DNA from: Trichodesmium erythraeum IMS101
GTDB lineage: Bacteria > Cyanobacteriota > Cyanobacteriia > Cyanobacteriales > Microcoleaceae
Direction: 5' to 3'
Assembly (NCBI RefSeq): GCF_000014265.1
Contig: NC_008312.1
Coordinates: 2,700,001 to 2,732,000, forward strand
Length of the DNA: 32,000 nt
Below the pieces are notes generated by a model, which had not been told where the DNA came from, ran no database searches, and saw nothing but the letters and a program-made list of their open reading frames with translations. Below, in pieces: positions 4,975-32,000 of the stretch. How positions within the stretch are numbered: the first letter of the stretch is position 1; each line of letters begins with the position of its first letter. Both the position numbers and the translations under genes were made by a program.

Positions 4975-5013
4975 GGAAGTCAACTGAATTTAGAATATAG
5001 TTTTGACTAACAT

Positions 5014-6385: not shown

Positions 6386-6461
6386 TCACCATAAGCGAGC
6401 CTTAGCTATAGCAATATTTCCCGATAGACACACATCAACATCAGTCCCTGGATCAGACTTT
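6386..6461 (-). pseudogene. Orphan copy 2 of the surE 3' end (stop codon + ~24 codons) embedded in the repeat field
   Basis: tcaccataagcgagcc...gatagacacacatcaacatcagtccctggatcagactttt matches 6719-~6794 of surE, then switches to heptamers. Confidence 0.85.
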
Positions 6462-6718
6462 TAGTTTTTAGTTTTTGGTTTTTGGTTTTAGTTTTTAGTT
6501 TTTGGTTTTAGGTAGTTTGAAAAAGTGTTAGGCGGCAGGTTTTTGGTTTTTAGTTTTTAGTTTTTAGTTTTTAGTGTTTGGTTTTAGGTAGCAAATTTTA
6601 GGCGGCAAGTTTTTGGTAGCAAGTTTTAGGTAGCAAATTTTAGGTTGCAGAAGTCAATATCAACTCCCATCAAAGCTACAGCTAATTTTTTAAGGTTACA
6701 CAGCAGCCGGGAAGGATG

Positions 6719-7417
6719 TCACCATAAGCGAGCCTTAGCTATAGCAATATTTCCCGATAAACACACATCAACATCAGTCCCTGGATCAGACTTTCGGTTA
6801 AGATCGTATCCCACATAAAGATATCCGTTCTCTTTTTTAACAAATTCTGTAAGTAGAGGGCGGTTACAGAGGCGACAAAAAACCATTTCAGGCTCAGGTG
6901 CATCAGGTTCAAGGTGGGGAAAATTAACCGTCCATAAAGTTCCTTCCTCAGGTGGTTCAGCTAATAACTTCTTCAAGACCATCACCGTCCACTGTATTGC
7001 TCTTTCCCAGTCAATTTCCCAGTCATTTCTCTTAAAATGAGAAAAAGCGATCGCTGGAATTCGATGTATTGTAGCCTCTCTAGCCGCTGCAATAGTTCCA
7101 GAAGGATAAATATCCGAGCCCATATTACAGCCGCTATTAACTCCAGAGACCACAAAATTGATATCATCATACAGATAGTTTACCCCCAAACGAACACAGT
7201 CAGCCGGCGTACTATCAACACTCACCTCAGTTTCAGAACGCCATTCTACTGGTATAACTGTGCGGATATTGACTTGATGGCCACAGCCGGACTGGTGGTG
7301 TTTCGGTGCAACCATAACAATGCGGTCCGAAGTCACTTGGGATAGTGCCTTATGTAATGCACGAATTCCAGGAGCGTCAATACCATCATCATTAGTGATT
7401 AAAAAAGACGTTACCAT
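6719..7417 (-). CDS. surE: 5'/3'-nucleotidase SurE
   Basis: 232 aa. N-terminal signature FLITNDDGIDAPGIRAL and a later GVNSG..MG.D...SGT..AAREA match the SurE family. Length is typical. ATG at 7417-7415. Confidence 0.9.
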   Translation of the reverse strand: MVTSFLITNDDGIDAPGIRALHKALSQVTSDRIVMVAPKHHQSGCGHQVNIRTVIPVEWRSETEVSVDSTPADCVRLGVNYLYDDINFVVSGVNSGCNMGSDIYPSGTIAAAREATIHRIPAIAFSHFKRNDWEIDWERAIQWTVMVLKKLLAEPPEEGTLWTVNFPHLEPDAPEPEMVFCRLCNRPLLTEFVKKENGYLYVGYDLNRKSDPGTDVDVCLSGNIAIAKARLW

Positions 7418-18048: not shown

Positions 18049-19035
18049 ATGCAACAAGTTATTTCTCATAGTCTACCACGGCGCCATAACAATATCCTAC
18101 AGGTATTTAAAAGCTATTATCAACTTACAAAACCCCGCATTATTTTGCTGCTATTAATTACAACTGCAGCGGGAATGTGGTTGGGAGCAAAAGGAGAAGT
18201 ATCTCTCTTTCTTTTGTTCGTTACATTAACAGGTGGTGCATTAGCTTCTGGTGCAGCTAATGCTATTAACTGTATCTACGACAGCGATATTGACTATATT
18301 ATGGAGCGTACTCGCTGGCGTCCTATTCCATCTGGGAGAGTTAAACCTCGTGATGCTCTGATTTTTGCGTTGACTCTGGCAGCAACATCATTTACTTTAC
18401 TCACAGTTTTTGCTAATTTACTAGCTGCACTGTTGGCCATGTCGGGAATAGTTTTTTATGTTGGTGTTTACACTCACTGGTTAAAACGTCACAGTGTTCA
18501 AAATATTGTAATTGGTGGTGCTGCTGGTGCTATTCCTCCGTTAGTGGGTTGGGCCGCAGTCACAGGGGAATTGAGTTGGGCTGCTTGGTTATTATTTGCA
18601 ATTATTGTGGTCTGGACTCCTCCTCATTTTTGGGCATTAGCAATTTATATTCGTGATGAATATCAGGAAGTTGGGGTGCCTATGTTACCTGTAATTGAGG
18701 GAAATGAGGAAACAGCTAGACAGATTTGGGTTTATACTCTAATTTTAATTCCTATGACGCTATTGCTGGTTTATCCGTTGCATGTGAGTGGAGCCATTTA
18801 TGCAGTATTAGCGACTTACCTTGGTGTAATTTTTATTAAGAAAGCTTGGCAGTTGTTGAAAGATCCTTCGAATAAAGATGTAGCACGATCGCTGTTTAAG
18901 TATTCTATCTACTATATGATGTTATTGTGTTTGGTAATGGTCATTGATAGTTTGCCTTTTACTCATGGAATTACTACTGCTTTAGCAGATAGTTGGCAAA
19001 CTTTTATTGGTGGAGCGATCGCAATTTTATTTTAG
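18049..19035 (+). CDS. ctaB: Protoheme IX farnesyltransferase (heme O synthase)
   Basis: 328 aa UbiA-type prenyltransferase. Motifs are [32 protein letters not shown] (NxxxDxxxD) and [10 protein letters not shown]. Confidence 0.93.
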
Positions 19036-19151
19036 GAGCTATATCAAAATAAGTTGTATAAATTTCATTTGAGATGAATTGTGAAATTTAGCTTCTATCA
19101 AAAAACTGTTTGAGTTATTTTTACCAAAAAATTGGGTACAAATATAAAGGC

Positions 19152-19178
19152 TCCCCCTTTGAGGGGGACTTTTAATTT
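19152..19178 (+). terminator. GC hairpin + T-rich tail: ctaB terminator and/or terminal hairpin of the adjacent IS200/IS605 remnant
   Basis: TCCCCCtttgaGGGGGActtttaatttt, a 6-bp stem with a 5-nt loop, 117 nt after the ctaB stop. It directly abuts the stop (19174-19172) of the minus-strand tnpA remnant, so the assignment is ambiguous. Confidence 0.5.
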
Positions 19179-19610
19179 TGAATGTACTTTTTAAGATTTG
19201 CAAGTGGTGCGCCTCTAACTAAAGTCACATACAGAGGAAGGACTCCAAAGCAGAGTTTTGTGAGTTTTTGTATATTCTGCTGGGCTATATCATCTACTCG
19301 AAACATCTTTAAGATGATTGACAATTTTGTGATCTGGATAATTTGGGTGGGTATTTGATAGCTATATGAACATGATAATTTTCGCCATTAAATTTTAGTA
19401 TCTTGAAGTTTATCTCTTTACCCCAGGAGGGGAGCAAGAGAAGTGGGTGCAGTACCCTATAAAATTTCAGCCGACATAGGAGCTTCGAGTCGGTTCTTTC
19501 TCTGTGTCTGCTTTCTTCAGAAGAGCTTCGTTAACAGGTCCCAGAGAATCTCAAATAAGTCTTTAGTTTCAATTAGACAATATAATTTTGTTTTAGGTAG
19601 GCAAAATGCT
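19172..19610 (-). mobile_element. tnpA: Decayed IS200/IS605-family Y1 transposase gene (tnpA pseudogene)
   Basis: Hand translation of the minus strand across at least two frameshifts gives EINFKILKFNGENYHVHIAIKYPPKLSRSQ / VNHLKDVSSR*YSPAEYTKTHKTLLWSPSSVCDFS* / RGAPLANLKKYIQN*. This follows the family pattern (..EFNGE.DH[IV]H.L..YPPKLS...VN.LKGVSSR....LWSPSYF..S.GGAPL..LK.YI.NQ). The catalytic-Tyr context WSPSYF reads WSPSSV here. The 5' extent is uncertain. Confidence 0.75.
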
Positions 19611-19667
19611 TACCTTTCCTTTTTATTAGCCTGAGATTATCTAAAATTATTTTTCAAAATATGATTT

Positions 19668-20190
19668 TTAAAACCATTGCAGCTGATTTTTAATGATAAT
19701 TTCTTGGCACATATTACTAACCCATTGAATAACCACAGCATTATAGGGATAAGGTTGATATTGAGTGCGCAAAATTGTTTTTCGCAGTTCATTGAAAAAT
19801 TCAGATTTCGTAACTCTGTATCAACTATTGTCTGTGGTTCCATCTCCAATAGAAGAGAGCACAAAAAAATTCAGTTTACTTTTGACATCTAAACCATAGC
19901 GATCGCTCATCAAACTTCTATGTTGGTTTTCACAAATTTTTCTTTTAATATTATTGTAGGCTTGATTTATTTCCTGATAATTGAAAAATCAAAAAAACCA
20001 CTACAAGCTCTAAATTGTTGGCAACTACACCTCCATTAAAAATTCTATATCCAGTGTATAGTGACTCTCCACTCACTATTAGGAATTGTCTTCCAGCAAC
20101 TTCCGTATTAGCTTTTATAATGCTCATGGCTATAGATGGAGTTTTAGTATTAGGGAATAAAGCGATCGCTTCTGCTTTATCCTAGATAAA
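19668..20190 (-). pseudogene. Frameshifted remnant of an unidentified gene
   Basis: Minus-strand fragments lie in different frames:
- DKAEAIALFPNTKTPSIAMSIIKANTEVAGRQFLIVSGESLYTGYRIFNGGVVANNLELVVVF
- EINQAYNNIKRKICENQHRSLMSDRYGLDVKSKLNFFVLSSIGDGTTDNS*
- YRVTKSEFFNELRKTILRTQYQPYPYNAVVIQWVSNMCQEIIIKNQLQWF*
I cannot assign a family. The overlapping short track ORFs on both strands (19637-19864, 19677-19892) are consistent with debris. Confidence 0.3.
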
Positions 20191-20198
20191 AATTGCTC

Positions 20199-20395
20199 TG
20201 CAGAAAATAGGAAATATAGACAATTTTTGACCAAATAAATAATCGCGTTTATGTAGCAATTCATGATAGTTATACCATGGGTAAATTATCTGTATTTAAG
20301 TATATAAAATATCTCTATTTTGGGATGATAAAGGATTACATTTTTCAGAATATTTGACTTTTGATAACAACTGTGAGGATTCATTTACCCTAAAG
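20199..20395 (+). pseudogene. Degenerate fragment of a type-A ATPase gene (codons ~18-85, including the Walker A region)
   Basis: cagaaaataggaaatatagacaatttttgaccaaataaataatcgcg...ccatgggtaaattatctg...tatataaaatatctctattttgggatgataaaggattacatttttcaga...gataacaactgtgaggattcatttaccc aligns with 20590-20790 of the intact gene at roughly three quarters identity by eye. It contains stop codons. Confidence 0.7.
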
Positions 20396-20466
20396 CAATA
20401 AGCGTAGGTTAGGTCTCAGAAAAAAGCCCCCACAAAAATATAGCGCGTATTAGGTTTGACTAGAAA

Positions 20467-20495
20467 TTTAACAACCCTGAATACTCTGATATAAT
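20467..20495 (+). promoter_or_regulatory. Predicted promoter of ATPase cassette 1 (TTTAAC-N17-TATAAT)
   Basis: tttaac (20467-20472), a 17-nt spacer, then tataat (20490-20495), 43 nt before the G1 ATG. The block ctgaaNactctgatataatNtgaNNttatagtcaaNctaaag recurs upstream of G4 (26014-26042 region). Confidence 0.4.
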
Positions 20496-20538
20496 TGAGT
20501 GTTATAGTCAAACTAAAGTTCAAATAATTTATCTAATT

Positions 20539-21768
20539 ATGTCATCCAATAAATTCTTTCCCAATAAACCTGTTCCTCCAGAGAAGTTTGTCGGTAGAAA
20601 ATCTGAACTATACACAATTTTTGACCAAGTTAATAATCGTGGTCATGTGGCTATTCATGGTGCTTCTGGTATGGGTAAATCATCTTTACTCGACTATATA
20701 AAATATCCTCATTTTTGGGATGATAAAGGATTAAATTTTTCAGAGGCTTTGATTGTTTATCACAACTGTGAGGGTTCATTTACGCCAAATAGTTTTTGGC
20801 AAGAAATTTTACAAGAGTTAAGAAATGAAGCTGAAGGTGATACAGATTTACAGAGTAAGATTGATGATGTCTTAAAATTAGAAACAATAGAAATAAGAGA
20901 TATACGTCGAATACTTAAACAAATTGGGAAAAGAAATAAATTTTTATTATTATTATTAGATGACTATAATGGAATACTTCGTACACCAGAATATTATAGC
21001 AAAGACTATCAAAAGTCTAGAGAAGTACAGACGTTTTTAAGTGGGTTGCGTAATCTGGCAGTTCATAGTACAGAAAGTCAATATTTCTCAACAGTTGTTG
21101 CTGCATTCCAAAAAGTGGATGAGTTAGGTCCAGAGATTCCTCGTGGTGGTTCTCCTTGGTATAATCATTATCTATATGTAGATTTAAAACCTTTTAGTCG
21201 GGAGGATATTAATAATTATTTTTTTAATTCCGATAGTCATTTCTTTATTTCAATTCCTGAAAATATTCAGAAAGAAAAAGTGTTAGAAATTACTAGTGGA
21301 TATCCAATCTTACTTCAACAGGCAGGTTATATATTTTCTAAACTGGATCGAGTTATTGATATTAATACTTTTAAGGCAGAACTTAAAAATCAAACTGAAC
21401 AGATATTTAAGGATATATGGAGAGAATTGACTACAGACGAACAAAAGCTTTTACAGCTCATTGTCATTGATAACTTCAAAGGAGAAGTTAATGGAAAGCG
21501 TTATTCTCATGATGGTATAGATCAAGTATTTGAGGAAAATAAGTATAAACTGACAACCTTGGAGCAAAAAGGTGTTATCTCTCAGAGCCCAGACCAGGAT
21601 AAATATAATTTTTCTTCTTCTTTAATGCAAGATTTAGTTCTTCAAAAATTGGCTGAAAGTATTTGGGACCCTAAAAAGGGTAAAATCTTGTTTGACAGCT
21701 TTGGAACCAAGATTAACTATGAGCAGTCCATGATTGAAGAATTATTAGGAATAATCCCTTTTAATTAA
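20539..21768 (+). CDS. STAND/ATPase_2-like P-loop NTPase, type A (G1)
   Basis: 409 aa. Motifs are FFPNKPVPPEKFVGRKSEL, Walker A GASGMGKSSL, Walker B FLLLLLDDY, LKPFSREDI, GxP-type motif TSGYPILLQQAGY, and a C-terminal winged-helix-like LTTDEQKLLQLIVI...LEQKGVISQ. No effector or sensor domain recognised. Closest paralog is G4. Confidence 0.8.
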   Translation: MSSNKFFPNKPVPPEKFVGRKSELYTIFDQVNNRGHVAIHGASGMGKSSLLDYIKYPHFWDDKGLNFSEALIVYHNCEGSFTPNSFWQEILQELRNEAEGDTDLQSKIDDVLKLETIEIRDIRRILKQIGKRNKFLLLLLDDYNGILRTPEYYSKDYQKSREVQTFLSGLRNLAVHSTESQYFSTVVAAFQKVDELGPEIPRGGSPWYNHYLYVDLKPFSREDINNYFFNSDSHFFISIPENIQKEKVLEITSGYPILLQQAGYIFSKLDRVIDINTFKAELKNQTEQIFKDIWRELTTDEQKLLQLIVIDNFKGEVNGKRYSHDGIDQVFEENKYKLTTLEQKGVISQSPDQDKYNFSSSLMQDLVLQKLAESIWDPKKGKILFDSFGTKINYEQSMIEELLGIIPFN

Positions 21769-21857
21769 TCAAAAAATCAAGAATAGTCAACTCAATTTTG
21801 GCAATTTTCTTTATACTTAAATAAAAAATTAAACCCTAATATGAGGTAGTACTTCAG

Positions 21858-24755
21858 ATGAGTAATTCAGAATTTATTTCTAACCCATATATTATTGGCA
21901 TTCCCATTCGCCAAAAAGATAAATTTTATGGACGAAGAGAAATATTTGATTTTCTTGAAACTCAGCTCAGGCAAAATGTAAAAATTATCTTATTACAAGG
22001 ACAGCGACGAATTGGTAAAACATCAGTTCTTGAGCAGATTAGTAATTTTATTGATTTGAATGATTTTGTTTTTATTCAACTTTCTCTAGAAGATAAAAAA
22101 TCTACAAATATAGAATATTTATTTGAGGAATTAGCAATAGAAATTCAAGATTACATCACAGATAATCTTGAGATAGAAGAGAGTAGTGTCTCTTGTTATA
22201 ATAGTTCTAAATTTCCTAATACATTAAATTGGTTTGAGAAAATATTTTTGCCGGAAGTTTATGAAACTCTAGACGGTAAAAATGTTGTTTTAATGTTAGA
22301 TGAATTTGATAGACTAGATAATATTAATCAAGAGACAGAAAACAAATTTTACAAATATTTGAAGCAGATAGTTACAACAGATAAAAAACTTTTTCTACTG
22401 CCAGTTATAGGCAAACCTGTTGAGGATCTTTCTGAATATTTTCAGGACTCTTTTCGGCAAGCAATTTTGCAAAAAATTGGATTACTAGATGATTCATATG
22501 CTAAAGAGTTAATTATCAATCCAACGAAAAAACTAAAATATCAAGATGAAGCCATCGAGACAATTCTCAGATTATCAGCTAATCATCCTTATTTTACTCA
22601 GGTTTTATGTTTTACTTTGTTTAATAGTGCTAAGGCTAGAGATAGATGGGAAGTAACTTCTCAAGATGTAGAAAGTATTGTTGAAAAAGCGATTACTCAT
22701 TCTCAAACAGGATTAGCATCTTTAAGAAATTCATTACCAATATATGAAAAAGTTGTTTTTTTAGCAGTAGCAAAGTCTCAAGATATAGATGGTATAAAAG
22801 AGCAGTTATTAACTTTAGAAGATTATGGTGTTTCTGTAACGGATGCCTTGAAAAAAGCGTTGAAAAATTTGGATAAATGGGGTTTTTTAGAAAAGCAAAG
22901 TTCTAGTTCCCCACAGGATTTTTATCAATTAAAAGTAGAGTTTGTTCGACGTTGGTTAATTACAAATAATTTCATCAAAATTTTTGGTGAGGCAATTCGT
23001 GAATTAGAAATTGCTGATTTAGAAGCTAATGAGCTTTATCAGGAAGCATGCAAAATAGGAGCAAGCGATATTAATAGTGAGATTGAAAAGTATAAGGAAG
23101 TAATTATAAAAAATCCTAACCACTTTAGCGCTAAATTGAAACTGGCTCAACTTTACTACGAGAATAAAAAATTCGACTCAGCAATTGAATTATATGAAAA
23201 TATTGACAAACTATATCAAAGAATTGATAGGTTTAGAGAGCATAAAAATATCCAGGAGTTTCTACCATTAAAAGTTGAAAATAATTTGCTTGAGGTTCGA
23301 TGGAAATATATTGATATTTTATTAGCAGATCCAGAGAATTTAGACTCTTTAAGATTTGCAGAGGAACAGCTCAAAAAAATATCTGAACTAGAGCCAAATA
23401 ACGAGAAAGTTAATAATAAGTTAAATGATATAAATCTGAAAATTCGTCGCCTGACAGCAAATCCTTTTACGATCAAAAAATATGTTGAACCAGAAGATTT
23501 TGTTGGTCGTAGAGATATTATTAGTTATGCTTTCAATCAAATTAAATATAATAGTAATGGTCTTTTTTATGGTACCCCAGGGATAGGAAAATCTTCATTG
23601 CTCAGATATTTAGTTGAACCTGCATCTTGGGAGATAAAAAAATACAACGTTGATATTAATGATTACTATATATTGCAAATTGATTGTGAATCTATAGAAA
23701 ATTTATCTGTTACTAACTTTTGGAAAGAAGTTATAAGAGAACTAGATCTGGAAACTGCAGATGATACAAAGTTAAAAGATAACATTCAAAAAATCTTAGC
23801 TCAGGAAACAATAACTAAAGTTGACATAGAGTCTTTATTTAGGTCAATTAGCTCTCAAAAATCCTTGGTACTATTGATAGATAATTATGATGCTTTATTC
23901 AAAACCCAAAATAATTATTCCTCAAATGAAGCATTGAAGCTTTTGAGACAGTTGAAAAGTATTAATAATCATAAACGTATAAAATGTTCCCTGATCATGA
24001 CTTCCTCGGAAAAGGTAGAGAAACTGCTTGGAGAGTTAAAAGAAGATACATCAATTTGCGAATATCTTGTTACTTTTCCTCTCGAACCATTTAATGATAA
24101 TGAAATGGAAGAATTATGGGAAAGAATGCCAAAAGAATATAGAGATAGAAGAGTTCTACAAAAAAAAGTCAAAGATTTGACTGGCGGCCATCCGGCGCTT
24201 TTTCAAATTATTTGTTATTATTTGTACGATTTGTGTAAAGTAAATATTGATAAACAGACACAGAAAAATAAATATGAAAACCTAAATAAGTGGTTTTATG
24301 ATCAGGCAAAGTTAATATTAAAAGGAATATGGAAATCATTAACTTTGGCAGAACAAGGAATGTTACTTTTAGTTATTTTATCTGACTTAGAAGGGCGTAT
24401 TAAAAGACATAGGAAGTATGACTTAAGTGGAATTAGAAGGTCGTTTAGAGAACAAGATCAAGTTTTAAATAGTCTAAAATACAGAAAAATAATCACAAAA
24501 ACTGGTACTGATAGAAACCACGAGGATATTTACGATTTAACGTCAGATGCTTTAAAGGAATGGGTAATTAATGAAATTATCATTAAGGATGTTGATGACG
24601 ATGTTGCACAGCGGGAAAAAATCTTTTTATTTATCAAGCAAAAAGATGTCAATATGATTAACCAGCTATTTAAAGAATTATGGAGTAGCAAAGATGAAGT
24701 TAAAGAATCACTGGTTTGTCTTAAGGAAATATTATCCTTATTTTTTGTGGCATGA
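21858..24755 (+). CDS. Fusion protein: type B' NTPase module + TPR/coiled-coil linker + type A NTPase module (G2)
   Basis: 965 aa.
- aa 1-~375: NPYIIGIPIRQKDKFYGRRE, Walker A GQRRIGKTSV, DFVFIQLSLEDK, Walker B VVLMLDEFD, SANHPYFTQVLC, KVEFVRRWL
- aa ~385-530: TPR-like/coiled-coil segment (IKNPNHFSAKLKLAQLYYENKKFDSAIELYENI)
- aa ~535-965: second module with EDFVGRRD, Walker A GTPGIGKSSL, LVLLIDNYD, TGGHPALFQIICY. Confidence 0.8.
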   Translation: MSNSEFISNPYIIGIPIRQKDKFYGRREIFDFLETQLRQNVKIILLQGQRRIGKTSVLEQISNFIDLNDFVFIQLSLEDKKSTNIEYLFEELAIEIQDYITDNLEIEESSVSCYNSSKFPNTLNWFEKIFLPEVYETLDGKNVVLMLDEFDRLDNINQETENKFYKYLKQIVTTDKKLFLLPVIGKPVEDLSEYFQDSFRQAILQKIGLLDDSYAKELIINPTKKLKYQDEAIETILRLSANHPYFTQVLCFTLFNSAKARDRWEVTSQDVESIVEKAITHSQTGLASLRNSLPIYEKVVFLAVAKSQDIDGIKEQLLTLEDYGVSVTDALKKALKNLDKWGFLEKQSSSSPQDFYQLKVEFVRRWLITNNFIKIFGEAIRELEIADLEANELYQEACKIGASDINSEIEKYKEVIIKNPNHFSAKLKLAQLYYENKKFDSAIELYENIDKLYQRIDRFREHKNIQEFLPLKVENNLLEVRWKYIDILLADPENLDSLRFAEEQLKKISELEPNNEKVNNKLNDINLKIRRLTANPFTIKKYVEPEDFVGRRDIISYAFNQIKYNSNGLFYGTPGIGKSSLLRYLVEPASWEIKKYNVDINDYYILQIDCESIENLSVTNFWKEVIRELDLETADDTKLKDNIQKILAQETITKVDIESLFRSISSQKSLVLLIDNYDALFKTQNNYSSNEALKLLRQLKSINNHKRIKCSLIMTSSEKVEKLLGELKEDTSICEYLVTFPLEPFNDNEMEELWERMPKEYRDRRVLQKKVKDLTGGHPALFQIICYYLYDLCKVNIDKQTQKNKYENLNKWFYDQAKLILKGIWKSLTLAEQGMLLLVILSDLEGRIKRHRKYDLSGIRRSFREQDQVLNSLKYRKIITKTGTDRNHEDIYDLTSDALKEWVINEIIIKDVDDDVAQREKIFLFIKQKDVNMINQLFKELWSSKDEVKESLVCLKEILSLFFVA

Positions 24756-24803
24756 TCAAGAGTTACGATTTAGTATATTAAATATTTTTAACTTTCAAGA
24801 AAG

Positions 24804-25916
24804 ATGAACGATTACAAATACAGACCAAATCCTTATATTTTTGGCAAACCAATTTATCAAAAAAAACAATTATTTGGTAGAGAAAATACTGTTAAAAGAA
24901 TTCAAAATAACATTAAAAATAATATAAAAATAACTTTGTTGCATATCCAAAGACGTATTGGTAAAACTTCATTAATAACTTGTTTGCCTCAGTTTTTCAC
25001 TGATGATATTAAGTGTGTTACTTTTTCATTTCAAGGTTATAAAAATAGATCAATACTTGAAATCTTAAATAATCTTGCTGATGAGATTGCTAATACTATT
25101 GATGGAGTCCCTAGAGAAGTAAGAGAACTAGCTGATAGTTCAGAAAATTTTTTTCGGATTTTTTTGCCAAGGATTATTAATAAATACTTATCTGGTAAAA
25201 ACCTTGTTCTTCTCCTAGATGAATTTGATGTTTTAGAAGAAGATCAAACAACGTTTATTCATGGAAAATACTTATTTAATGAATTAAAAAAAGCTGTGAA
25301 CCGAGAAGAAAAACTATTTGCTATCCTGGTTTTTGGTAGACCATTAAAAGATATGACCTATCTAGGAGAATTGTTACAAAAAGAAGGTCAAGAGACTATA
25401 GAAGTTGGTTTGCTGGATAAGAAAAGTACACACAATTTGATTGTTGAGCCAGCTAAGGGAACATTAGAATATGAAGCAGATGCAATTGATGCTATTTGGC
25501 AACTATCCGCGGGTCATCCTTCTCTAACACAACTACTATGCTTGTATATTTTTAGGTTTTGTATTCAAAAAGGAATAAAAAAGGTAACTCATACTCATGT
25601 CGACTCAATTTTAGATGAAGCAATGGAGGGAGGTAAGGCAGCATTAAAAGGCTTTATAGAACCTTTGAATGAAAACGAAAATTTGTTTTTTCGTGCAGTA
25701 GCAAAAGCTCAGAATGAAGTTGGAGAAAACCGACTAAAGGCTAATATAAAAAAATCGCAGTCTGTAGGGAAACGTTTAGCTGAAGAATATGGCTTTTTAG
25801 AAGAAAAAGAAGATGGAACAGGCTATAAAATTAAAGTCGAGTTAGTCCGGCGTTGGCTAGTAAAAAATTATCCTTTATCTGACAAAGAAAAGCTGCAAGT
25901 GGAAAAAGCTATTTAA
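24804..25916 (+). CDS. STAND/ATPase_2-like P-loop NTPase, type B'' (G3)
   Basis: 370 aa. Motifs are NPYIFGKPIYQKKQLFGREN, deviant P-loop LLHIQRRIGKTSLITCLPQ (first Gly replaced by Ile), Walker B LVLLLDEFD, SAGHPSLTQLLC and KVELVRRWL. Close to the N-terminal half of G6 at the DNA level in the P-loop region (about 90% identity by eye). Confidence 0.8.
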   Translation: MNDYKYRPNPYIFGKPIYQKKQLFGRENTVKRIQNNIKNNIKITLLHIQRRIGKTSLITCLPQFFTDDIKCVTFSFQGYKNRSILEILNNLADEIANTIDGVPREVRELADSSENFFRIFLPRIINKYLSGKNLVLLLDEFDVLEEDQTTFIHGKYLFNELKKAVNREEKLFAILVFGRPLKDMTYLGELLQKEGQETIEVGLLDKKSTHNLIVEPAKGTLEYEADAIDAIWQLSAGHPSLTQLLCLYIFRFCIQKGIKKVTHTHVDSILDEAMEGGKAALKGFIEPLNENENLFFRAVAKAQNEVGENRLKANIKKSQSVGKRLAEEYGFLEEKEDGTGYKIKVELVRRWLVKNYPLSDKEKLQVEKAI

Positions 25917-26013
25917 AAAAATAAAATCCCATATTTTGTGTTTTGGATGTGGAACTGCTATTAAAACCTAGCCAACTTAATTAAAGTATGAAATATCTGA
26001 AAGATGCCGAAGA

Positions 26014-26042
26014 TTTAGCAATTCTGAAGACTCTGATATAAT
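26014..26042 (+). promoter_or_regulatory. Predicted promoter of ATPase cassette 2 (TTTAGC-N17-TATAAT)
   Basis: tttagc (26014-26019), a 17-nt spacer, then tataat (26037-26042), 43 nt before the G4 ATG. Same position and flanking sequence as the G1 upstream element. Confidence 0.4.
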
Positions 26043-26085
26043 ATGAAATTATAGTCAAGCTAAAAGTAAAATAGTTGATCCAATT

Positions 26086-27363
26086 ATGCCACGCAATCAA
26101 TTTTATCCCGATAAATCTGTTCCTCCAGAAAAATTTGTAGGTAGAACATCTGAACTATCCACGATTTTTGACAAAATTAATAGTCGCGATCATGTTGCTA
26201 TTTTTGGTAGTTCTGGTATGGGTAAAACATCTTTGCTTCAATATATAGAAAACTCTAAATTTTGGGAAGAAAGAGACTTAGATTTTTCAGAAGCTTTGAT
26301 TGTTTATCACAACTGCGAGCTTTCAGTTATAGATAGTTTTTGGCAAGAAGTCCTCAGAACATTAATAGATAAAGCTACAGGTGATCAAGATTTAGTGAGT
26401 AAGATTAATGCTTTATTAGGGTTGGAGAAAATAGAAATAACAGATATACGGGAGCTTCTCAGAGAGATTGGGAAAAGAGGTAAGTTTTTATTATTATTAT
26501 TAGATGACTATCATAGAATACTTGGTACACGAGAAGAGTATCCGGAAAACCAGGGAAAAAAATCTAAAAAAGTGCTGACTTTTTTAAGTGAGTTGCGTAA
26601 CCTAGCAGTTCATAATAGAGAAGGTCAATATTTCTCAACTATTGTTGCTACGTTTCAAAAGTTGCATGAACTAGGTCCAACAATTGTTCCTGGTGGTTCT
26701 CCTTGGTATAATCATTATGCCTATCTACCTTTAAAACCTTTTTGTAAAAGCGATATTGAGGGTCATTTTTTTAATCGCGATAGTCATTTTTTCATTTCAG
26801 ATGCTCCGAAAGAAGAAGTTTTAAAAATGACTGGTGGGTATCCAGCGTTACTTCAGTTTACAGGTTATATATTTTCTCGCTTGGAACCAGTTAATGTTGA
26901 TACTCTGAATACAATGTTAAAAAACGATGCTGATAGAATTTTTCAGGATGTCTGGAACAATTTTGAAAAAAATGAGCAAGAAATTTTGCAGTTAATTTTA
27001 ATTGATAAATATAAGGGTAAATTCAGGGAAATTTCTTATTCTATTGCTGGCATAGAAAAAGAGTTTATTCGCAATATTAGCATATTGAAGAGTCTTGAAG
27101 AAAAAGGATTTATCAGTCAGGTTAAACAAGCAAATAAATATAGTTTTACTTCTTCTTTAATGGAAGATTTTATTGGTGATCAACTTGCAGAAAAAAATGT
27201 TTCAAACGCTAAAGACCGCAAGATAGTGATTAATTTATTTATTATCAAGATTACTCTTGGACTATGGAAGAAAGTTAAAGAAAAAATACAGCCTGTTACT
27301 AAGTTCATATCACCTCTTGCTAAAATCATCGATTTAATCGCTAACAAAATAGAAGGCAAATAA
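26086..27363 (+). CDS. STAND/ATPase_2-like P-loop NTPase, type A (G4)
   Basis: 425 aa. Motifs are FYPDKSVPPEKFVGRTSEL, Walker A GSSGMGKTSL, FLLLLLDDY, LKPFCKSDI and TGGYPALLQFTGY. Collinear with G1. The distinct C-terminal ~50 aa are amphipathic/hydrophobic (IVINLFIIKITLGLWKKVKEK...). Confidence 0.8.
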   Translation: MPRNQFYPDKSVPPEKFVGRTSELSTIFDKINSRDHVAIFGSSGMGKTSLLQYIENSKFWEERDLDFSEALIVYHNCELSVIDSFWQEVLRTLIDKATGDQDLVSKINALLGLEKIEITDIRELLREIGKRGKFLLLLLDDYHRILGTREEYPENQGKKSKKVLTFLSELRNLAVHNREGQYFSTIVATFQKLHELGPTIVPGGSPWYNHYAYLPLKPFCKSDIEGHFFNRDSHFFISDAPKEEVLKMTGGYPALLQFTGYIFSRLEPVNVDTLNTMLKNDADRIFQDVWNNFEKNEQEILQLILIDKYKGKFREISYSIAGIEKEFIRNISILKSLEEKGFISQVKQANKYSFTSSLMEDFIGDQLAEKNVSNAKDRKIVINLFIIKITLGLWKKVKEKIQPVTKFISPLAKIIDLIANKIEGK

Positions 27364-27395
27364 TAGCAAACGTCTAGTTGGATGTAGTTTTGCAA

Positions 27396-28643
27396 ATGAG
27401 AAATTTAAAGGCTTTGATTAAAAATCCCTACACTGTTGGTCGCCCAATTTTTGAACCAGAAAACCTATTTGGACGAGAAACAATTTTAAGTTTTATTCAA
27501 GAACAACTGACTTCTGGGGCTAAAGTAATTCTATTGCATGGGCAAAGACGTATGGGCATGACTTCATTTATGAACTACATTGCTGAAGATGTTAGTTTAG
27601 ATGAATTTGTCTTTGTTCGACTGTCTCTAGAAGATAAATATAATAAATCTTTGGATAAAATATTATATGATTTAGCTAGAAATATTACTGATGAGTTGGG
27701 AATATCTAGAACCACCATAACTATTCCTAGTCAAGAAGATTTAAAGGTGGAAACACAAGATTTTGTTAATATTTTTATGCTTCAAGTTTACCAACAATTA
27801 AAGAGGAAAAATTTAGTTCTACTTCTTGATGAATTTGATATGTTATGGGACAATAGCTGTCAAGAAATTAACCCCTTTGTCAATTTCTTAATTTCAATTA
27901 TTAATCTACAAGAGAAATTATTTATAATTTTGTTTGTCGGAAGAGGGGAAACTAATCTAGAGTTTATCCAAGATTTATTCCGGGAAGTAGGAAAATTACC
28001 TCACCAAGAATTGGGGTTACTTGATAAGTGTAATACTATCAAGTTAGTTACTGAAATTCCTAGGGAAGCCACGAATTATAAGTACGATCCAGATGCAATT
28101 GAAAAAATCTGGGAATTATCGGGGGGACATCCTTACTATACTCAATTACTATGTTCTAATTTATTTCACCAAGCTAGAAATAAAGGCAAATGGAATGTGA
28201 GTTATCAAGATGTCCAAGGAGTTATAGATAAATCTTTGGAGCAAGGTGAACCTGCTTTTGTATCTCCTCTAGAAGTTTTATCTACTCAACAAAAATTAAT
28301 TTTGTCGGCAGTAGCTGAAGCACAAGAAAGAGCTACAAATTCAGAGCATATTGTTAGTCCATTGGTGATACTAGAAATGTATGATGTCAAGGTCACATCA
28401 AATTTAATAGAAGAACTAATAACAGCAGCAAAACATTTAGTTGATTTGAAGTTTATAGTGGAAATAGGAAAACAAAAATTCAGAAAAATCAGAGTTCCTA
28501 TCTATAAAGTTAGAATTGAATTGTTTCGACTTTGGTTATTAAAACAATGTCCATTAGACAAACAAAGAGATTTAATTAATGATTTATTTCCTAAGAAGCC
28601 CTGGATCCAGAGGCTTTGGTATATGGCCTTTTTAAATGAATAA
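27396..28643 (+). CDS. STAND/ATPase_2-like NTPase, type B', Walker A lysine replaced by Met (G5)
   Basis: The track ORF starts at a TTG (27378). The first ATG at 27396 gives MRNLKALIKNPYTVGRPIFEPENLFGRE. The P-loop reads GQRRMGMTS (ATG codon at 27558-27560 where GKT is expected). Other motifs are EFVFVRLSLEDK, LVLLLDEFD, SGGHPYYTQLLC and RIELFRLWL. Closest paralog is the N-terminal module of G2. Confidence 0.75.
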   Translation: MRNLKALIKNPYTVGRPIFEPENLFGRETILSFIQEQLTSGAKVILLHGQRRMGMTSFMNYIAEDVSLDEFVFVRLSLEDKYNKSLDKILYDLARNITDELGISRTTITIPSQEDLKVETQDFVNIFMLQVYQQLKRKNLVLLLDEFDMLWDNSCQEINPFVNFLISIINLQEKLFIILFVGRGETNLEFIQDLFREVGKLPHQELGLLDKCNTIKLVTEIPREATNYKYDPDAIEKIWELSGGHPYYTQLLCSNLFHQARNKGKWNVSYQDVQGVIDKSLEQGEPAFVSPLEVLSTQQKLILSAVAEAQERATNSEHIVSPLVILEMYDVKVTSNLIEELITAAKHLVDLKFIVEIGKQKFRKIRVPIYKVRIELFRLWLLKQCPLDKQRDLINDLFPKKPWIQRLWYMAFLNE

Positions 28644-28672
28644 TATTCAGATAATAACTAAACAATCTAATA

Positions 28673-30601
28673 ATGCAAACTAACAATCATTTATCCATAA
28701 ATCCTTATGTTTTTGGCAAACCAATTTATGAATACAACAACTTATTTGGTAGAAAAAATGATGTTGATAAAATTAAAGATCACATCATTAACAAAGATAT
28801 AAAAATAACTTTATTGCATGTCCAAAGACGTATTGGTAAAACTTCATTGATAACTTGTTTGCCTCAGTCTTTCACTGAGGAGCAGAATGGTGTTAAGTTT
28901 GTTACTTTTTCATTTCAAGGTTATAAAGATAAGCCAATCCCTGAAATACTAAATTATCTTGCTGATGAGATCGCTGGTACTATTCAACTTCCTCAAAAAG
29001 TAAGAGATCAGGCTGATACTACGCACAACTTTTTTGAACTTTTTTTGCCGAAAGTTATCGATCAATATTTGTCAGGTCAAAAGTTGGTTCTTCTCCTTGA
29101 TGAATTTGATGTTTTAGAAGAAAAAGATAAGAAAGGAAAAGTATTATTTGATTACTTAAAAAAAGCTGTTAAGGAACAAAAAAAACTATTTGCTATTCTG
29201 GTTTTTGGTAGACCCTTAAAGGATATGAAGTATCTAGAAACATTTTTACAAGAAGAAGGTCAAGAGACTATAGAAGTTGGTTTACTGGATTATGAAGGTA
29301 CACAAGATTTGATTGTTGAGCCACTTAAGAGAATACAGAGCGTATTTAGATATGAAAAAAGTGCAATAGATAGAATTTGGGAACTATCTGCTGGCCATCC
29401 TTCTTTGACACAACTGCTGTGCTCAAATGTTTTTGTTCATTGTAGGAATAAGCAACAGAGTGTAGTTCGGAAAGACGATGTAGACTCAATTTTAAGTCAA
29501 GCAATGGAAGAAGGCCAGGCAATATTACAAGGCTTTCTAGAGCCTTTAAGCGATATTGAAAAGTTATTTTTTTTTGCAGTAGCAGAAGCTCAAGAACAAG
29601 GCACAGACCCATTAAAGATTCTGAAAATAATACAAAAAACTACAATAACACCGGCAGATTTTAGAAGAGCACGAGAGCGTTTAATAGAGTTAGGCTTTGT
29701 AGAAAAAAATGGCAAAGGTCTTAAAATAAAAGTTGAATTAGTCCGGCTCTGGCTAATAGAAAAAAACCCCTTACCCAACAATAAACAGAGGAAACCGAAG
29801 GAAGGAAGAAAAAAGATCAAACGTCATATAACCTCAAGTCAACCCAACAGACCTAACCCAGTTGCACAATTCATTGCTTTTATTGCGTTGATAAGCGTTA
29901 TAGTTTTTATTGGACAGAAGTTACTCTCTAGGATTGATAGCTCCAAAAACTATGAACGCTTTCAGTCTGACTGTTACAGACTATCAGAGGAAATAAGCAA
30001 CGCTTTAGAAGAGAAAAAAGATACAACGCAGTTGCAAGTCATCAAAAAAGTTAGAACTGAATGGTCGAGAGAAAAAAAAGGCTTATTAGACAAACAATGC
30101 CCATATTCTTATGAACTAGATGCAAAATATAATGCATTACTACAGTACTATGGACAAAGTAAAGTAGATACTGGAAACTTTGATGAAGGTATAGAAGCAT
30201 TTTGTGAGATTACCAGTGAATACAAGAATTTTTCTGACATTAAAAAAATCTTTGAAAGATGGGTACTAATAGACAAAAGATTATCTAATGAAAGTACAAA
30301 AAGGGTGCTGAAGCAAATAATTAAGCAAAATCAATCAGGAAATGATTGCCTTGTTTATTCATTTAAAGACGATAGAAATAAAAATGATCTGTATGACCTG
30401 AAAGCTCAAGTTCATGCTGATGATTATGAGTATGGCGAAGCGGTCGAGTCATATTGCAAAATTACAGAAAACTATTATAAGTTTGAGACTGTTGTTAAAC
30501 AGCTAAAAAAATTGAAACGAGAAAATGTAGAGAAAGTAGAGGAAAAACTCAAAGAATTAAACGATCCGTGTCCAGCATTTCCTCCCTCACCAGACAATTA
30601 A
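28673..30601 (+). CDS. Type B'' NTPase module fused to a basic linker, one TM helix and a ~225-aa Cys-containing repeat domain (G6)
   Basis: 642 aa.
- aa 1-~365: collinear with G3 (LLHVQRRIGKTSLITCLPQ, LVLLLDEFD, SAGHPSLTQLLC, KVELVRLWL)
- linker and TM: KQRKPKEGRKKIKRH followed by the hydrophobic VAQFIAFIALISVIVFIGQKLL (nt 29861-29926)
- C-terminal domain: six Cys and an internal duplication (QCPYSYELDAKYNALLQYYG..GNFDEGIEAFCEITSEYKNF versus NDCLVYSF..DLYDLKAQVHADDYEYGEAVESYCKITENYYKF). Confidence 0.8.
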   Translation: MQTNNHLSINPYVFGKPIYEYNNLFGRKNDVDKIKDHIINKDIKITLLHVQRRIGKTSLITCLPQSFTEEQNGVKFVTFSFQGYKDKPIPEILNYLADEIAGTIQLPQKVRDQADTTHNFFELFLPKVIDQYLSGQKLVLLLDEFDVLEEKDKKGKVLFDYLKKAVKEQKKLFAILVFGRPLKDMKYLETFLQEEGQETIEVGLLDYEGTQDLIVEPLKRIQSVFRYEKSAIDRIWELSAGHPSLTQLLCSNVFVHCRNKQQSVVRKDDVDSILSQAMEEGQAILQGFLEPLSDIEKLFFFAVAEAQEQGTDPLKILKIIQKTTITPADFRRARERLIELGFVEKNGKGLKIKVELVRLWLIEKNPLPNNKQRKPKEGRKKIKRHITSSQPNRPNPVAQFIAFIALISVIVFIGQKLLSRIDSSKNYERFQSDCYRLSEEISNALEEKKDTTQLQVIKKVRTEWSREKKGLLDKQCPYSYELDAKYNALLQYYGQSKVDTGNFDEGIEAFCEITSEYKNFSDIKKIFERWVLIDKRLSNESTKRVLKQIIKQNQSGNDCLVYSFKDDRNKNDLYDLKAQVHADDYEYGEAVESYCKITENYYKFETVVKQLKKLKRENVEKVEEKLKELNDPCPAFPPSPDN

Positions 30602-30733
30602 TTAATATTGCTCCCTTGGATTTTCCCAAGAATTATCGCTACCTTGGAACTCTTCTTGAGGTACTACTTTAATTCCTTGCCTAAATACTCTAGCTATTTT
30701 CTTCAATAAGTTTCTTTCTTGAGACAAAATTCT

Positions 30734-32000
30734 TTATTTTCTAAGTATTTTTTCAAATAAGTATAAGGTAAGCCCAATAAATATCCAGATTATACAACTA
30801 ACTAAAAAAGTAGTGATAAAAACCACGCCCCATCCTGAAAATTGCCATTCTAATCGCTCCAAGAAATTATAAGTTTTCTCATAAACGATAGTGCCTCTGA
30901 GGCTAAAAGATACAGCAATAGTACCCCAGCATCCGCAAAAGAGATGAACAGGAATAGCCCCTAATGGATCCTCAAGTTTTATCCACTTTAAAAGTTTCCT
31001 AGTTAAAACGACAACCACTCCACTAACAGCACCTATAAAAATGGCAATAGGAATATCTACATAAGCAGCAGAAGCGGTTATCCCAACTAAGCCTCCTAAT
31101 ATACCATTAATTAGTGATGACAGATCTAGTTTTCCAATCTCTGAGTTGTTGCTAGATCTTTGAGAAAATAATGGGCTAAGTAATATAGCAATAATCCCGC
31201 CAGTTGCTGCAGACATAATAGTAGTTATGATAATATGACCTACTTCTTTGAGCTCGGTTGTTGAACCACCATTAAAGCCTAACCAACCTAACCAAAGTAT
31301 CAGACATCCGAGGGTAGCAGACGTCAAATTTCTTTGATCATAGGATTCCTTTTGACCCTGAGGAGAAAGTGCTTCCGAACCTTCATCCGTTTCTAAATCT
31401 TCCCAGGGATCATATCCAAGCCAAGACCATCTTGGCTTAAGTAATATAGCAACTGCTAAAGCAGCAGTTCCTCCCACAGTATGAACAACAGTAGATCCGG
31501 CAAAATCTATAAAGTTCAGTCCTTGCTTGAGCCAACCATATTCTGACCATACCCAATGACCGACAATAGGGTATAAAAATCCTACCAAAATAAAACTAAA
31601 GCAGAAAAATACCCAAAGTTTCATTTTTTCTGCAACTGCTCTAGAAACAATAGTAGCTGCAGTGCCAGCAAATGCTAATTGAAAGAAAAATATAGAGGCG
31701 ATAGAACGTTTAGGAAACTGACGCTGCAAACAAGAAAATCCTTTGCTAGGATAACCTAGGGGAGTATCATTTTTTGGCGGTAGAATAAATTGTGACTTTT
31801 GCTCGAACTCATTATATTCCATTGTTGGAGAAAAATGTCCGTGATAACTCTGTACTTTTTCATTCTTTTGCTCGAAGTTTCCCCTACAAGGAAGATGATA
31901 TGAGCTATCCCCAAACATCAAGCCAAAACCAAACATCCAAAAGGCGATCGCCGCCACACAAAAAACGATTAAGTTTTTTGCCAAGACATTAACAGAATTA
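30734..32000 (-). CDS. amt: Ammonium transporter (Amt/MEP family), divergent paralog; 5' end beyond the window
   Basis: Motifs are FWMFGFGLMFG, FFFQLAFAGTAATIVS.AVAE, FIDFAGSTVVHTVGG, LILWLGWLGFNGGS and GAIPVHLFCGCWGTIAV, so both pore His contexts are present. The track start at 31984 is a TTG. The frame stays open upstream (..NSVNVLAKNL) to nt 32000, so the true start lies outside the window. Confidence 0.85.
   Translation of the reverse strand, partial: NSVNVLAKNLIVFCVAAIAFWMFGFGLMFGDSSYHLPCRGNFEQKNEKVQSYHGHFSPTMEYNEFEQKSQFILPPKNDTPLGYPSKGFSCLQRQFPKRSIASIFFFQLAFAGTAATIVSRAVAEKMKLWVFFCFSFILVGFLYPIVGHWVWSEYGWLKQGLNFIDFAGSTVVHTVGGTAALAVAILLKPRWSWLGYDPWEDLETDEGSEALSPQGQKESYDQRNLTSATLGCLILWLGWLGFNGGSTTELKEVGHIIITTIMSAATGGIIAILLSPLFSQRSSNNSEIGKLDLSSLINGILGGLVGITASAAYVDIPIAIFIGAVSGVVVVLTRKLLKWIKLEDPLGAIPVHLFCGCWGTIAVSFSLRGTIVYEKTYNFLERLEWQFSGWGVVFITTFLVSCIIWIFIGLTLYLFEKILRK

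Follow-up and report, generated by a model that had tools for sequence, protein, structure and literature searches.

The locus examined here raises the question of what a bacterium might do with six consecutive genes that all encode P-loop nucleoside triphosphatases (NTPases) and are annotated as hypothetical or 'ATP-binding'. These genes, Tery_1782 to Tery_1787 of Trichodesmium erythraeum IMS101 (here G1 to G6; the proteins are exact matches of WP_011611416-421), lie in a stretch of 32,000 nucleotides (nt) that was analysed as a whole and is referred to below as the window. By the gene coordinates of a published expression table, it corresponds to 2,700,001-2,732,000 of the chromosome. An earlier note on this DNA had read them as a cassette of three minimal STAND-like NTPases (A, B' and B'') that lacks an effector and occurs twice in the same order. 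Our results support a modified view, and we think it somewhat more probable than otherwise that Tery_1782-1787 represent two adjacent, diverged copies of an operon for a hetero-oligomeric, membrane-anchored switch of the ATPase_2/STAND type.

All six open reading frames (ORFs) are on the + strand, encode 370-965 amino acids (aa) and are intact in DNA of ~30% G+C. Their description as co-directional genes with short gaps proved exact in its coordinates, the gaps amounting to 29-169 nt when G5 is counted from the ATG at 27396, and all of the motifs quoted for them were located in the sequences. The cox operon, ctaA and ctaB lie upstream and an ammonium-transporter gene (amt, 30734-31984, minus strand) downstream. 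The complete ORFs of the two composite genes span 21858-24755 (G2) and 28673-30601 (G6), both on the + strand, and the parts of the cluster are:

20539-21768, + strand: G1 (Tery_1782, 409 aa), family A, with a winged helix and a short C-terminal tail
21858-23057, + strand: N-terminal B-type module of G2 (Tery_1783, 965 aa in total), with GQRRIGKTS, VVLMLDEFD and NHPYFTQ
23067-23216, + strand: linker of tetratricopeptide repeat (TPR) type in G2, ~aa 404-453 (TPR_19, 25.1 bits against a cut-off of 25, aa 409-451)
23448-24755, + strand: C-terminal A-type module of G2, aa 531-965, with Walker A GTPGIGKSS and a degenerate Walker B, LLIDNYD (D-N)
24804-25916, + strand: G3 (Tery_1784, 370 aa), family B, B'' subtype, with IQRRIGKTS and neither transmembrane helix nor ectodomain
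26086-27363, + strand: G4 (Tery_1785, 425 aa), family A, with GSSGMGKTS, LLLLLDD and SPWYNHY
27378-28643, + strand: G5 (Tery_1786), family B, B' subtype; its length is 421 aa if translation begins with the TTG at 27378 and 415 aa with the annotated ATG at 27396
28673-29857, + strand: cytoplasmic B'' ATPase module of G6 (Tery_1787, 642 aa in total), with VQRRIGKTS, followed by a basic juxtamembrane stretch
29858-29923, + strand: single transmembrane helix of G6, aa 396-417 (hydropathy 2.44)
29924-30601, + strand: predicted extracytoplasmic tail of G6, ~225 aa, with six Cys in two loose repeats, a type of tail restricted to Trichodesmium and Okeania

Walker A (GxxxxGK[ST]) and Walker B (hhhhD[DE]) are canonical in G1, G4 and the N-terminal module of G2 (G2N), the G1 motifs being GASGMGKSS and LLLLLDD together with SPWYNHY and GYP..LQ. 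In G3 and G6 the first Gly of Walker A is missing ([IV]QRRIGKTS). A G[HY]P..[LFT]Q motif occurs in all seven modules, with an N-H-P variant in the B module of G2.

By sequence comparison the genes form two homologous families, A and B, rather than three types. Family A consists of G1, G4 and the C-terminal module of G2 (aa 531-965), which the earlier note had left untyped; G1 and G4 are 56% identical, and the G2 module is 28% identical to each of them over ~390 aa (BLASTP). Family B comprises G2N, G3, G5 and the N-terminal module of G6 (G6N), of which G3 and G6N form a pair with 57% identity (BLASTP), whilst G2N, G5 and this pair show mutual identities of 31-35%. A profile alignment of A with B (hhalign) covers the whole core (334 columns, 15% identity, probability 99%, E 1e-17). 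In neighbour-joining trees G1 and G4 fall within one Microcoleaceae-restricted clade and G3 and G6N within another; G5 is one of ten orthologues from Okeania, Dapis and Trichodesmium that make up a clade, G2N joins the general B pool in the company of only its two orthologues and is not the sister of G5, and the A module of G2 clusters with its counterparts in further B-A fusions, some of them from Nostocales. A B' type uniting G2N with G5 is ruled out by these tree positions and by an identity of 34%, no closer than that of G2N with G3, and the motifs that had suggested it (FVF..LSLEDK, HPY[FY]TQ) are ancestral states of family B. Hence, of the three types said to recur in the same order, G1/G4 and G3/G6N stand as true paralogue pairs but G2N/G5 is no pair, so that the cassettes are built differently: A, B-TPR-A and B'' in one, and A, B' (without the Walker A Lys) and B'' with transmembrane helix and ectodomain in the other.

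The conserved unit of which these cassettes are versions emerged from a comparison of genomes. A profile of family A, run against GTDB species-representative genomes, gave 78 distinct loci from the best 80 of 180 matches, and every ORF within them was classed by hidden Markov models (HMMs) of A and B. All 78 loci are cyanobacterial and every named taxon is filamentous (Nostocales, Microcoleaceae, Moorena, Scytonema, Tychonema, Stigonema, Leptolyngbyaceae and others). At each assessable locus, save for a single long ORF described below, the A gene is followed by a B gene on the same strand, at a median gap of 45 nt, and the pair is kept in at least 73 species-level loci. The commonest arrangement is A-B-B (30 loci), followed by A-B (25), A-(B-A fusion) (6) and a few compound forms. 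B-A fusions occur in about 11 of the 78 loci, proteins of the B-TPR-A kind represented by G2 are found in both Nostocales and Oscillatoriales, and B-B fusions exist too. The A/B pair is thus an operon conserved among filamentous cyanobacteria, and conservation of gene order outside Trichodesmium, which the earlier note had proposed to survey, is borne out for A followed by B; the notion of a fixed A/B'/B'' trio that was duplicated once gives way to a unit of A plus one or two B genes. A reverse check starting from a Leptolyngbya B protein again found an nSTAND1-like gene product, of 433 aa, immediately upstream.

Five loci have no B gene after A. Four of these are ended by the end of the contig, and the fifth, which alone among the assessable loci has no recognisable B gene, is that of Scytonema sp. 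PMC 1070.18 (L066, 155-4819), where a 1554-aa ORF begins with an A module and the B HMM is silent over the remaining ~1100 aa.

An exhaustive search with the A profile returned 285 clusters (at 50% identity) with E < 1e-30, headed by proteins of ~430 aa that stand alone and by B-A fusions of ~950 aa, which match through their C-terminal halves. Among distant relatives, A-like modules are fused to a Ser/Thr kinase, a kinase plus caspase, TIR, TCAD9 or a nucleotide cyclase, and B-like proteins either bear a Trans_reg_C DNA-binding domain themselves or have a downstream neighbour that bears one. Both chassis therefore serve as regulatory modules elsewhere, whilst the cyanobacterial A/B pair has none of these domains in cis. 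On one metagenome contig (L089, 3037-6581) a fusion of such a distant A-like NTPase with a Ser/Thr kinase precedes a weakly A-like ATPase of 451 aa, behind which a beta-propeller protein is encoded, an order that hints at paired ATPases as a wider theme.

Conserved departures from the catalytic consensus accompany this pairing. The Walker A lysine of G5 is replaced (GQRRMGMTS) with Walker B (LVLLLDEFD) intact, and the same is true throughout its clade, in which 10/10 members have G[MI]TS instead of GKTS and keep LLLDEFD. B'' proteins all carry [VIL]QRRIGKTS, without the first Gly. In family A the second acidic residue of Walker B varies with context: D-N is present in 6 of 13 fused modules and D-D in 73 of 79 stand-alone ones. 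The A module of G2 also lacks SPWYNHY, a motif that is invariant among stand-alone A proteins. One module per Trichodesmium cassette (G5 in one, the A module of G2 in the other) is accordingly predicted from its motifs to be probably unable to hydrolyse ATP in the normal manner, and the degenerate state is maintained across genera. The suggestion of a hetero-oligomer gains support because both kinds of fusion (B-A and B-B) and conserved, catalytically degenerate modules are found.

The B family also provides the membrane component of the proposed switch. Peripla_BP_6/ANF_receptor domains were detected in 42 of 72 non-redundant B C-terminal tails, most of them preceded by TPR repeats, and a single transmembrane helix separates the cytoplasmic part from the tail in 63 of 108 long B proteins. 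For one Nostoc B protein, the ectodomain could be matched to solved structures of Leu/Ile/Val-binding and related amino-acid-binding proteins. The typical B protein is therefore a single-pass protein consisting of ATPase, TPR repeats, transmembrane helix and binding-protein ectodomain. In Okeania, Dapis and Trichodesmium the cassette comprises A (~430 aa), a soluble B' (~420 aa) and a B'' of ~650 aa with transmembrane helix and Cys-rich tail, i.e. the arrangement G4-G5-G6. The 30 residues preceding the helix of G6 contain 10 K/R and 1 D/E, and the ~225-aa tail that follows it is acidic and holds six Cys; by the positive-inside rule the ATPase of G6 is therefore predicted to lie inside and the tail outside (N-in/C-out). 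Both the TPR-like linker of G2 and the transmembrane helix and Cys-repeat tail of G6 had been recognised before and are confirmed here (aa 409-451 and aa 396-417, respectively). The 'minimal' B modules of Trichodesmium are, accordingly, cut-down versions of large proteins that cross the membrane once and bear periplasmic-binding-protein ectodomains, and this shifts the reading of the locus from a cytosolic NLR-like sensor towards a transmembrane receptor. In the cytosolic view the ATPase layout was correctly identified, but it missed that family B is mostly transmembrane and equipped with an ectodomain.

A paralogue in Trichodesmium sp. MAG_R03 (L010, 6298-8049) combines a B''-type ATPase and a transmembrane helix at ~aa 402 with a C-terminal GUN4 domain (PF05419) that is apparently extracytoplasmic; an outward-facing domain of this porphyrin-binding type is unexpected.

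Matches of the six proteins to Pfam were weak (AAA_16, AAA_22, nSTAND1, nSTAND6, ATPase_2, AAA_35 and NACHT) and mostly near or under the curated cut-offs. For ATPase_2 (PF01637, gathering cut-off 33.2 bits) G5 scored 42.5, G2 33.0 and G4 31.7, so that G5 is above the cut-off and the other two just under it, with G1, G3 and G6 unmatched; for nSTAND1 (cut-off 27.1) the scores were 27.6 for G1, over 38 residues only, 37.9 for G2 and 26.3 for G4. No further domain was assigned to G1, G3, G4 or G5; G2 contains its TPR stretch and second NTPase module, and G6 its transmembrane helix and Cys-rich tail. AlphaFold2 (AF2) models of G1 and G3, with predicted local distance difference test (pLDDT) scores of 84 and 88, respectively, consist of a P-loop domain, a helical lid and a C-terminal winged helix. 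The closest neighbour of both models in the PDB is the archaeal ATPase_2 protein PABY2304 (2qen; E 1.8e-10 for A and 4e-10 for B, template modelling score ~0.55-0.65). SSO1545 (2fna), a second such protein, ranks fourth for A and is outside the top 50 for B. ORC/Cdc6, of the origin recognition complex (ORC), comes next for both families; plant NLRs and Avs4 appear at lower rank for A, and no NLR is among the top 50 structural neighbours of B. A profile search of PDB sequences found no relative of the A or B ATPase modules, ORC/Cdc6 included, and matched the TPR tails alone. The ATPase_2/STAND layout without effector thus receives support from Pfam, the AF2 models and the structural neighbours.

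Compared with the archaeal ATPase_2 proteins PABY2304 and SSO1545, A and B share a P-loop domain, a GxP-type helical lid and a C-terminal winged helix, and B in addition bears the RR.GKT signature of their Walker A; however, identity is only 15-18%, B usually adds TPR repeats, a transmembrane helix and an ectodomain, and the archaeal proteins stand alone and have no known function whereas A and B are always paired in an operon. ORC/Cdc6 and the replication factor C (RFC) clamp loader, as structural neighbours, likewise assemble several paralogous subunits of ATPase plus winged helix or lid, and some ORC/Cdc6 and RFC subunits have degenerate nucleotide sites. This is an analogy of organisation only, the likeness of A and B to ORC being at the level of fold and B being a membrane protein.

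STAND NTPases, i.e. NLR, Avs, bNACHT and nSTAND1-6, have the same core of Walker A, hhhhD[DE], GxP helical domain and winged helix; Nostocales orthologues of A match nSTAND1, and the phyletic pattern favours filamentous bacteria in both cases. The superfamily, reportedly as Leipe et al. delimited it in 2004, brings P-loop, GxP helical domain, winged helix, effector and repeat-type sensor together in one polypeptide, and STAND/ATPase_2 NTPases are familiar from NLRs, Avs, MalT and Apaf-1 as switches that consist of one cytosolic chain. A and B depart from this scheme in that neither has an effector or effector-associated domain (EAD), the chassis is split into two obligatorily paired families, the sensor resides on a separate subunit that spans the membrane and exposes a ligand-binding ectodomain outside the cytoplasm, and degenerate subunits are conserved. 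From Avs and bacterial NLR-like proteins, in which effector, STAND core and cytosolic repeat sensor share one polypeptide, they differ in the missing effector and in the position of the sensor-like domains of B beyond the transmembrane helix.

A different comparison is offered by signal-transduction receptors with solute-binding-protein ectodomains, namely sensor kinases, Ser/Thr kinases, cyclases and animal ANF receptors (reviewed in PMC8050422). Most B proteins share their topology, with an extracytoplasmic type I periplasmic-binding-protein or ANF_receptor domain, one transmembrane helix and a cytoplasmic module; this module, however, is an ATPase_2/STAND-type NTPase and no kinase or cyclase, and in Trichodesmium the binding-protein domain has been replaced or lost.

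A working mechanism can be proposed. The data show the gene order, the fusions, the signals of topology, the states of the motifs and the expression; physical A-B assembly, ligand control and output are the parts that we infer. A would be the soluble, catalytically competent partner, and B the receptor subunit, with its ATPase module in the cytoplasm, one transmembrane helix and an outward-facing sensor domain, which would be of the Leu/Ile/Val-binding-protein (LIVBP) type in most taxa, Cys-rich in Trichodesmium and Okeania (G6) and GUN4 in one Trichodesmium paralogue. For G5 and the A module of G2 a structural or regulatory part without hydrolysis is probable, comparable to what is known from ORC and clamp loaders. 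On capturing a ligand from outside the cytoplasm, the ectodomain of B would alter the nucleotide-dependent assembly of A with B at the inner face of the membrane, and the output might be DNA binding by the winged helix or recruitment of proteins encoded elsewhere. A more specific form of this proposal, which we offer tentatively as possible rather than probable, is that the pair constitutes a hitherto unrecognised class of 'inside-out' STAND-type receptors confined to filamentous cyanobacteria, whose paralogous, single-pass B subunits read periplasmic small molecules and relay the signal by nucleotide-dependent co-assembly with A. LIVBP-like ectodomains would then read amino acids, and GUN4 or Cys-rich domains other ligands; as the periplasm is thought to be continuous along the cyanobacterial filament, an inside-out receptor could serve cell-to-cell communication.

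If correct, such a switch would be a new type of receptor for bacterial signal transduction, and would offer an experimental entry point to the sensing of the shared periplasm by filaments or, in the other case, to a novel form of defence. The pair is present in at least 73 species-level filamentous cyanobacteria, amongst them the globally important N2 fixer Trichodesmium and the bloom formers Dolichospermum and Aphanizomenon, and its orthologues in the genetically tractable Nostoc and Anabaena make the model amenable to experiment. No experimental work on the A/B pair was found in the searchable literature, nor any paper naming Tery_1782-1787 or the KEGG-cited orthologues alr0841, Ava_4445 and Ava_3080, the sole match being to the neighbouring gene alr0840.

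Two alternative explanations concern the function of the family as a whole. The STAND-like layout, the lower-ranking structural matches of A to plant NLRs and Avs4, the restriction of all named taxa in the 78 loci to filamentous forms, and the occurrence of TIR, caspase and TCAD9, all of them typical of conflict systems, in fusions with distant A-like modules would all suit an NLR/Avs-like anti-phage or conflict system that senses an invader, oligomerises and kills or arrests the cell, either by clustering of the B transmembrane helices with damage to the membrane or through an effector encoded elsewhere. Fast, patchy nonsynonymous change, turnover of paralogues and the presence of pseudogenes (see below) fit this picture as well, as do weak partial matches in PADLOC-DB v2 to PDC-S27 and mad8. 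These last matches, though, like one to DpdD, have E values of 1e-8 or weaker and span only the P-loop third of the profiles: for the PADLOC candidate PDC-S27 (PDLC04984), G3 (E 2e-8) and G6 (E 1e-7) align over protein residues 22-165 with profile positions 3-132 of 474, and G5 has no PADLOC match at all. Searches of Pfam, NCBIfam and PADLOC detected no nuclease, protease, TIR, SIR2 or pore-forming domain in the six proteins; caspase, TIR, Trypco, EADs, vWA-MoxR and EACC1, the linked effectors and adaptors of NTP-dependent conflict systems in multicellular prokaryotes (PMC7159879), are likewise missing from them, and no neighbour family is conserved in 77 loci. Moreover, the usual sensors are extracytoplasmic and of amino-acid-binding type and would miss cytosolic phage proteins, the locus has stayed at one place among housekeeping genes in different genera and is not part of a defence island, it is absent from plasmids and phages, and its expression is low and constitutive. 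A defence role is less likely because of the extracytoplasmic amino-acid-type sensors, the stable housekeeping surroundings and the missing effector, and we regard it as unlikely.

The second alternative, that each ATPase is an independent regulator of MalT/AfsR type, i.e. a nucleotide-gated DNA binder acting alone through its winged helix, with clustering due to tandem duplication, draws on the winged helix that ends both families, the rank of the DNA-binding ORC/Cdc6 directly after ATPase_2 among structural neighbours, the Trans_reg_C domains borne by, or adjoining, distant B relatives, and the clear tandem paralogy of G1/G4 and G3/G6. Mere duplication would not, however, be expected to yield a strict A-then-B order in at least 73 species-level loci together with B-A fusions, a conserved subunit without the Walker Lys is hard to explain for a stand-alone ATPase switch, and in most B proteins a membrane anchor follows directly upon the winged helix; this explanation too seems to us improbable.

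Amongst described systems no match was obtained in PADLOC, Pfam, NCBIfam, the PDB or the literature, and the profile-HMM and PADLOC checks proposed in the earlier note returned weak, generic P-loop/STAND matches and no system. A known defence system was dropped as a candidate on the grounds that matches in NCBIfam and PADLOC reach the P-loop level only. In the catalogue of STAND-based conflict systems of Kaur et al. 2020 (PMC7159879), a search for terms and the section on System 4 give no mention of the A/B pair; System 4, the one system there that has a transmembrane segment plus a periplasmic-binding-protein domain, is built, according to that section, on EACC1 and caspase and is hence different.

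A further question is whether the Trichodesmium copies are still at work. Regions upstream of the two cassettes are relevant here and contain the following elements:

20180-20394, + strand: relic of an A-type gene, similar to G1 codons ~12-84 (Walker A region), with an indel and stop codons
20468-20495, + strand: promoter-like site P1, TTAACA, 16 nt, TG-extended TATAAT, 44 nt 5' of G1
26015-26042, + strand: promoter-like site P2, TTAGCA, 16 nt, TG-extended TATAAT, 44 nt 5' of G4

Blocks 20466-20765 and 26013-26312, which cover the upstream regions and starts of G1 and G4, are 80% identical, in agreement with the shared promoter-like block that had been noted before each cassette. P1 (11/12 positions) and P2 (10/12) are the two best sigma-70-type matches within 19000-31000, and both fall inside the duplicated block; since the total of promoter-like matches in this 12-kb region is no higher than expected by chance, the argument for promoters rests on rank, position and conservation. 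In RNA-seq data the six genes of IMS101 reach 8.5-98 counts per million (CPM), as compared with 72-100 for dnaA and 1-8 for transposases, and none of them responds to iron supply (PMC12090762 Table S1). Spectral counts are 0-6 for Tery_1783, 2-11 for Tery_1785 and 0-1 for Tery_1782, and Tery_1787 appears only as a decoy entry in the proteome data (PMC6411698 supplement). All six genes are thus transcribed, and G2 and G4 are detected as proteins.

The ctaA-ctaB and amt flanks are common to the locus in Trichodesmium, Okeania, Dapis and related metagenome-assembled genomes (MAGs). Collections of plasmids and phages gave no match to the locus, and together with its syntenic position across genera this led us to reject an origin as a mobile element. 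Okeania sp. SIO3I5 has the same six-gene order with a broken G1 orthologue, and a further MAG contains an A gene that is broken, a B-A fusion and a B'' with its transmembrane tail retained. G1 and G3 are ~70-78% identical to A and B'' of orthologues and single-cassette relatives, above their similarity to G4 and G6; the cassettes are therefore old paralogues with different middle genes, and no recent duplication is indicated.

Several observations weigh against the membrane-anchored switch as we propose it, some of them with regard to its parts and most with regard to the Trichodesmium copies. The absence of effector domains in the six proteins has its counterpart in the neighbourhood: when all ORFs of 77 loci were clustered, no third gene family was found conserved beside A and B, i.e. 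no output domain, and the most frequent neighbour 'family' consisted of promiscuous pentapeptide-repeat proteins (17 of 77 loci). The G6 ectodomain matches no recognisable fold family, its tail having no Pfam family and only seven homologues, all from Trichodesmium, Okeania or unnamed metagenome contigs, so that a ligand-binding role for it is assumed by analogy with the binding-protein tails of other B proteins; G3 and G5 possess neither sensor nor transmembrane segment. Ratios of nonsynonymous to synonymous substitution rates (dN/dS) are 0.37-0.46 for the A/B genes between genera, against 0.07-0.12 for ctaA and ctaB in the same genome pairs (amt, itself at 0.33-0.61, was uninformative as a control), and within Trichodesmium they rise to 0.74 for G1, 0.87-1.36 for G4 and 0.67-0.89 for G6. 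Amongst environmental sequences there are G1 alleles of 372-375 aa without the C-terminal tail (a set with P0242, P0218 and P0221, which also includes a G3 allele) and a 141-aa G3 allele that arose by a deletion joining codon ~128 to the spacer before G4. In T. erythraeum 21-75 (L088, 4100-4500) a one-base frameshift, which alternatively could be an assembly error, divides G6 into pieces of 302 and 275 aa. G1 orthologues are broken in L010, L018 and L021, and the relic of an A gene sits upstream of G1 within the 1.5-kb spacer that separates it from ctaB, being 74-84% identical to 20574-20789 of G1 with an offset that shifts from 394 to 395. Part of the Trichodesmium locus (G1, G3, perhaps G6) may accordingly be losing function.

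Taken to its extreme, this would mean a largely functionless, decaying array of paralogues in Trichodesmium, with the family functional in other cyanobacteria, and the Trichodesmium genome is indeed rich in non-coding DNA and pseudogenes. The near-neutral dN/dS of G1, G4 and G6 within the genus, the relic at 20180-20394, the tail-less, deleted and frameshifted alleles, the broken G1 orthologues and the loss of transmembrane helix and ectodomain from G3 all point in this direction; a B'' relative in L021 keeps both of these elements, and the orthologue in L018 is without them as well. Against this, the six ORFs are intact despite the low G+C content, and the Walker and GxP motifs are preserved save for two conserved degenerate sites. 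G5 is 99% identical between strains with a dN/dS of 0.32-0.57, and G4 differs from the allele of strain 21-75 at 42 positions that are concentrated in two surface segments (aa 52-84 and 307-335), the ATPase core being almost unchanged. The promoter blocks are conserved, too. The earlier note had coupled decay by premature stops with lack of transcription; some alleles are indeed truncated or frameshifted, but the IMS101 genes are transcribed, with two of their proteins detected, and we find wholesale decay decidedly doubtful. We retain as the preferred reading a membrane-anchored A/B switch whose operon is present in two diverged copies.

At the downstream edge of the cluster, strain 21-75 (L088) shows 94.7% DNA identity to IMS101 over G3-G6 up to window position 30512, and the adjoining amt only 80% protein identity with an unusually high dN/dS of 0.54-0.61. 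This suggests that ~30512 is a recombination boundary, or that amt is an atypical, fast-evolving paralogue.

Elsewhere in the window, scans with Rfam and for tRNAs gave no matches. Positions 5035-6800 form a ~1.7-kb non-coding array whose + strand consists nearly exclusively of G and T (small outliers lie at 1858-1898 and 2017-2056), in which heptamers GGTTTTT, TTTTAGG and TTTTAGT are nested in units of ~75-77 nt bearing TTTGAAAAAGTGTTAGGCGGCAGG; with a GC skew of +0.70 and an AT skew of -0.46 it has the look of a telomere repeat and is strictly strand-asymmetric. Tandem repeats of 147 nt (49 codons), in 6-7 copies each and 82-90% matching, occupy 185-1171 and 3380-4346. The first of these lies outside the large ORF on the minus strand and overlaps two small + strand ORFs (227-793 and 815-1255), and the second, together with a 339-nt repeat (2324-3005), is contained in that minus-strand ORF (2305-4983, 892 aa), the product of which is probably a repeat-rich surface protein.

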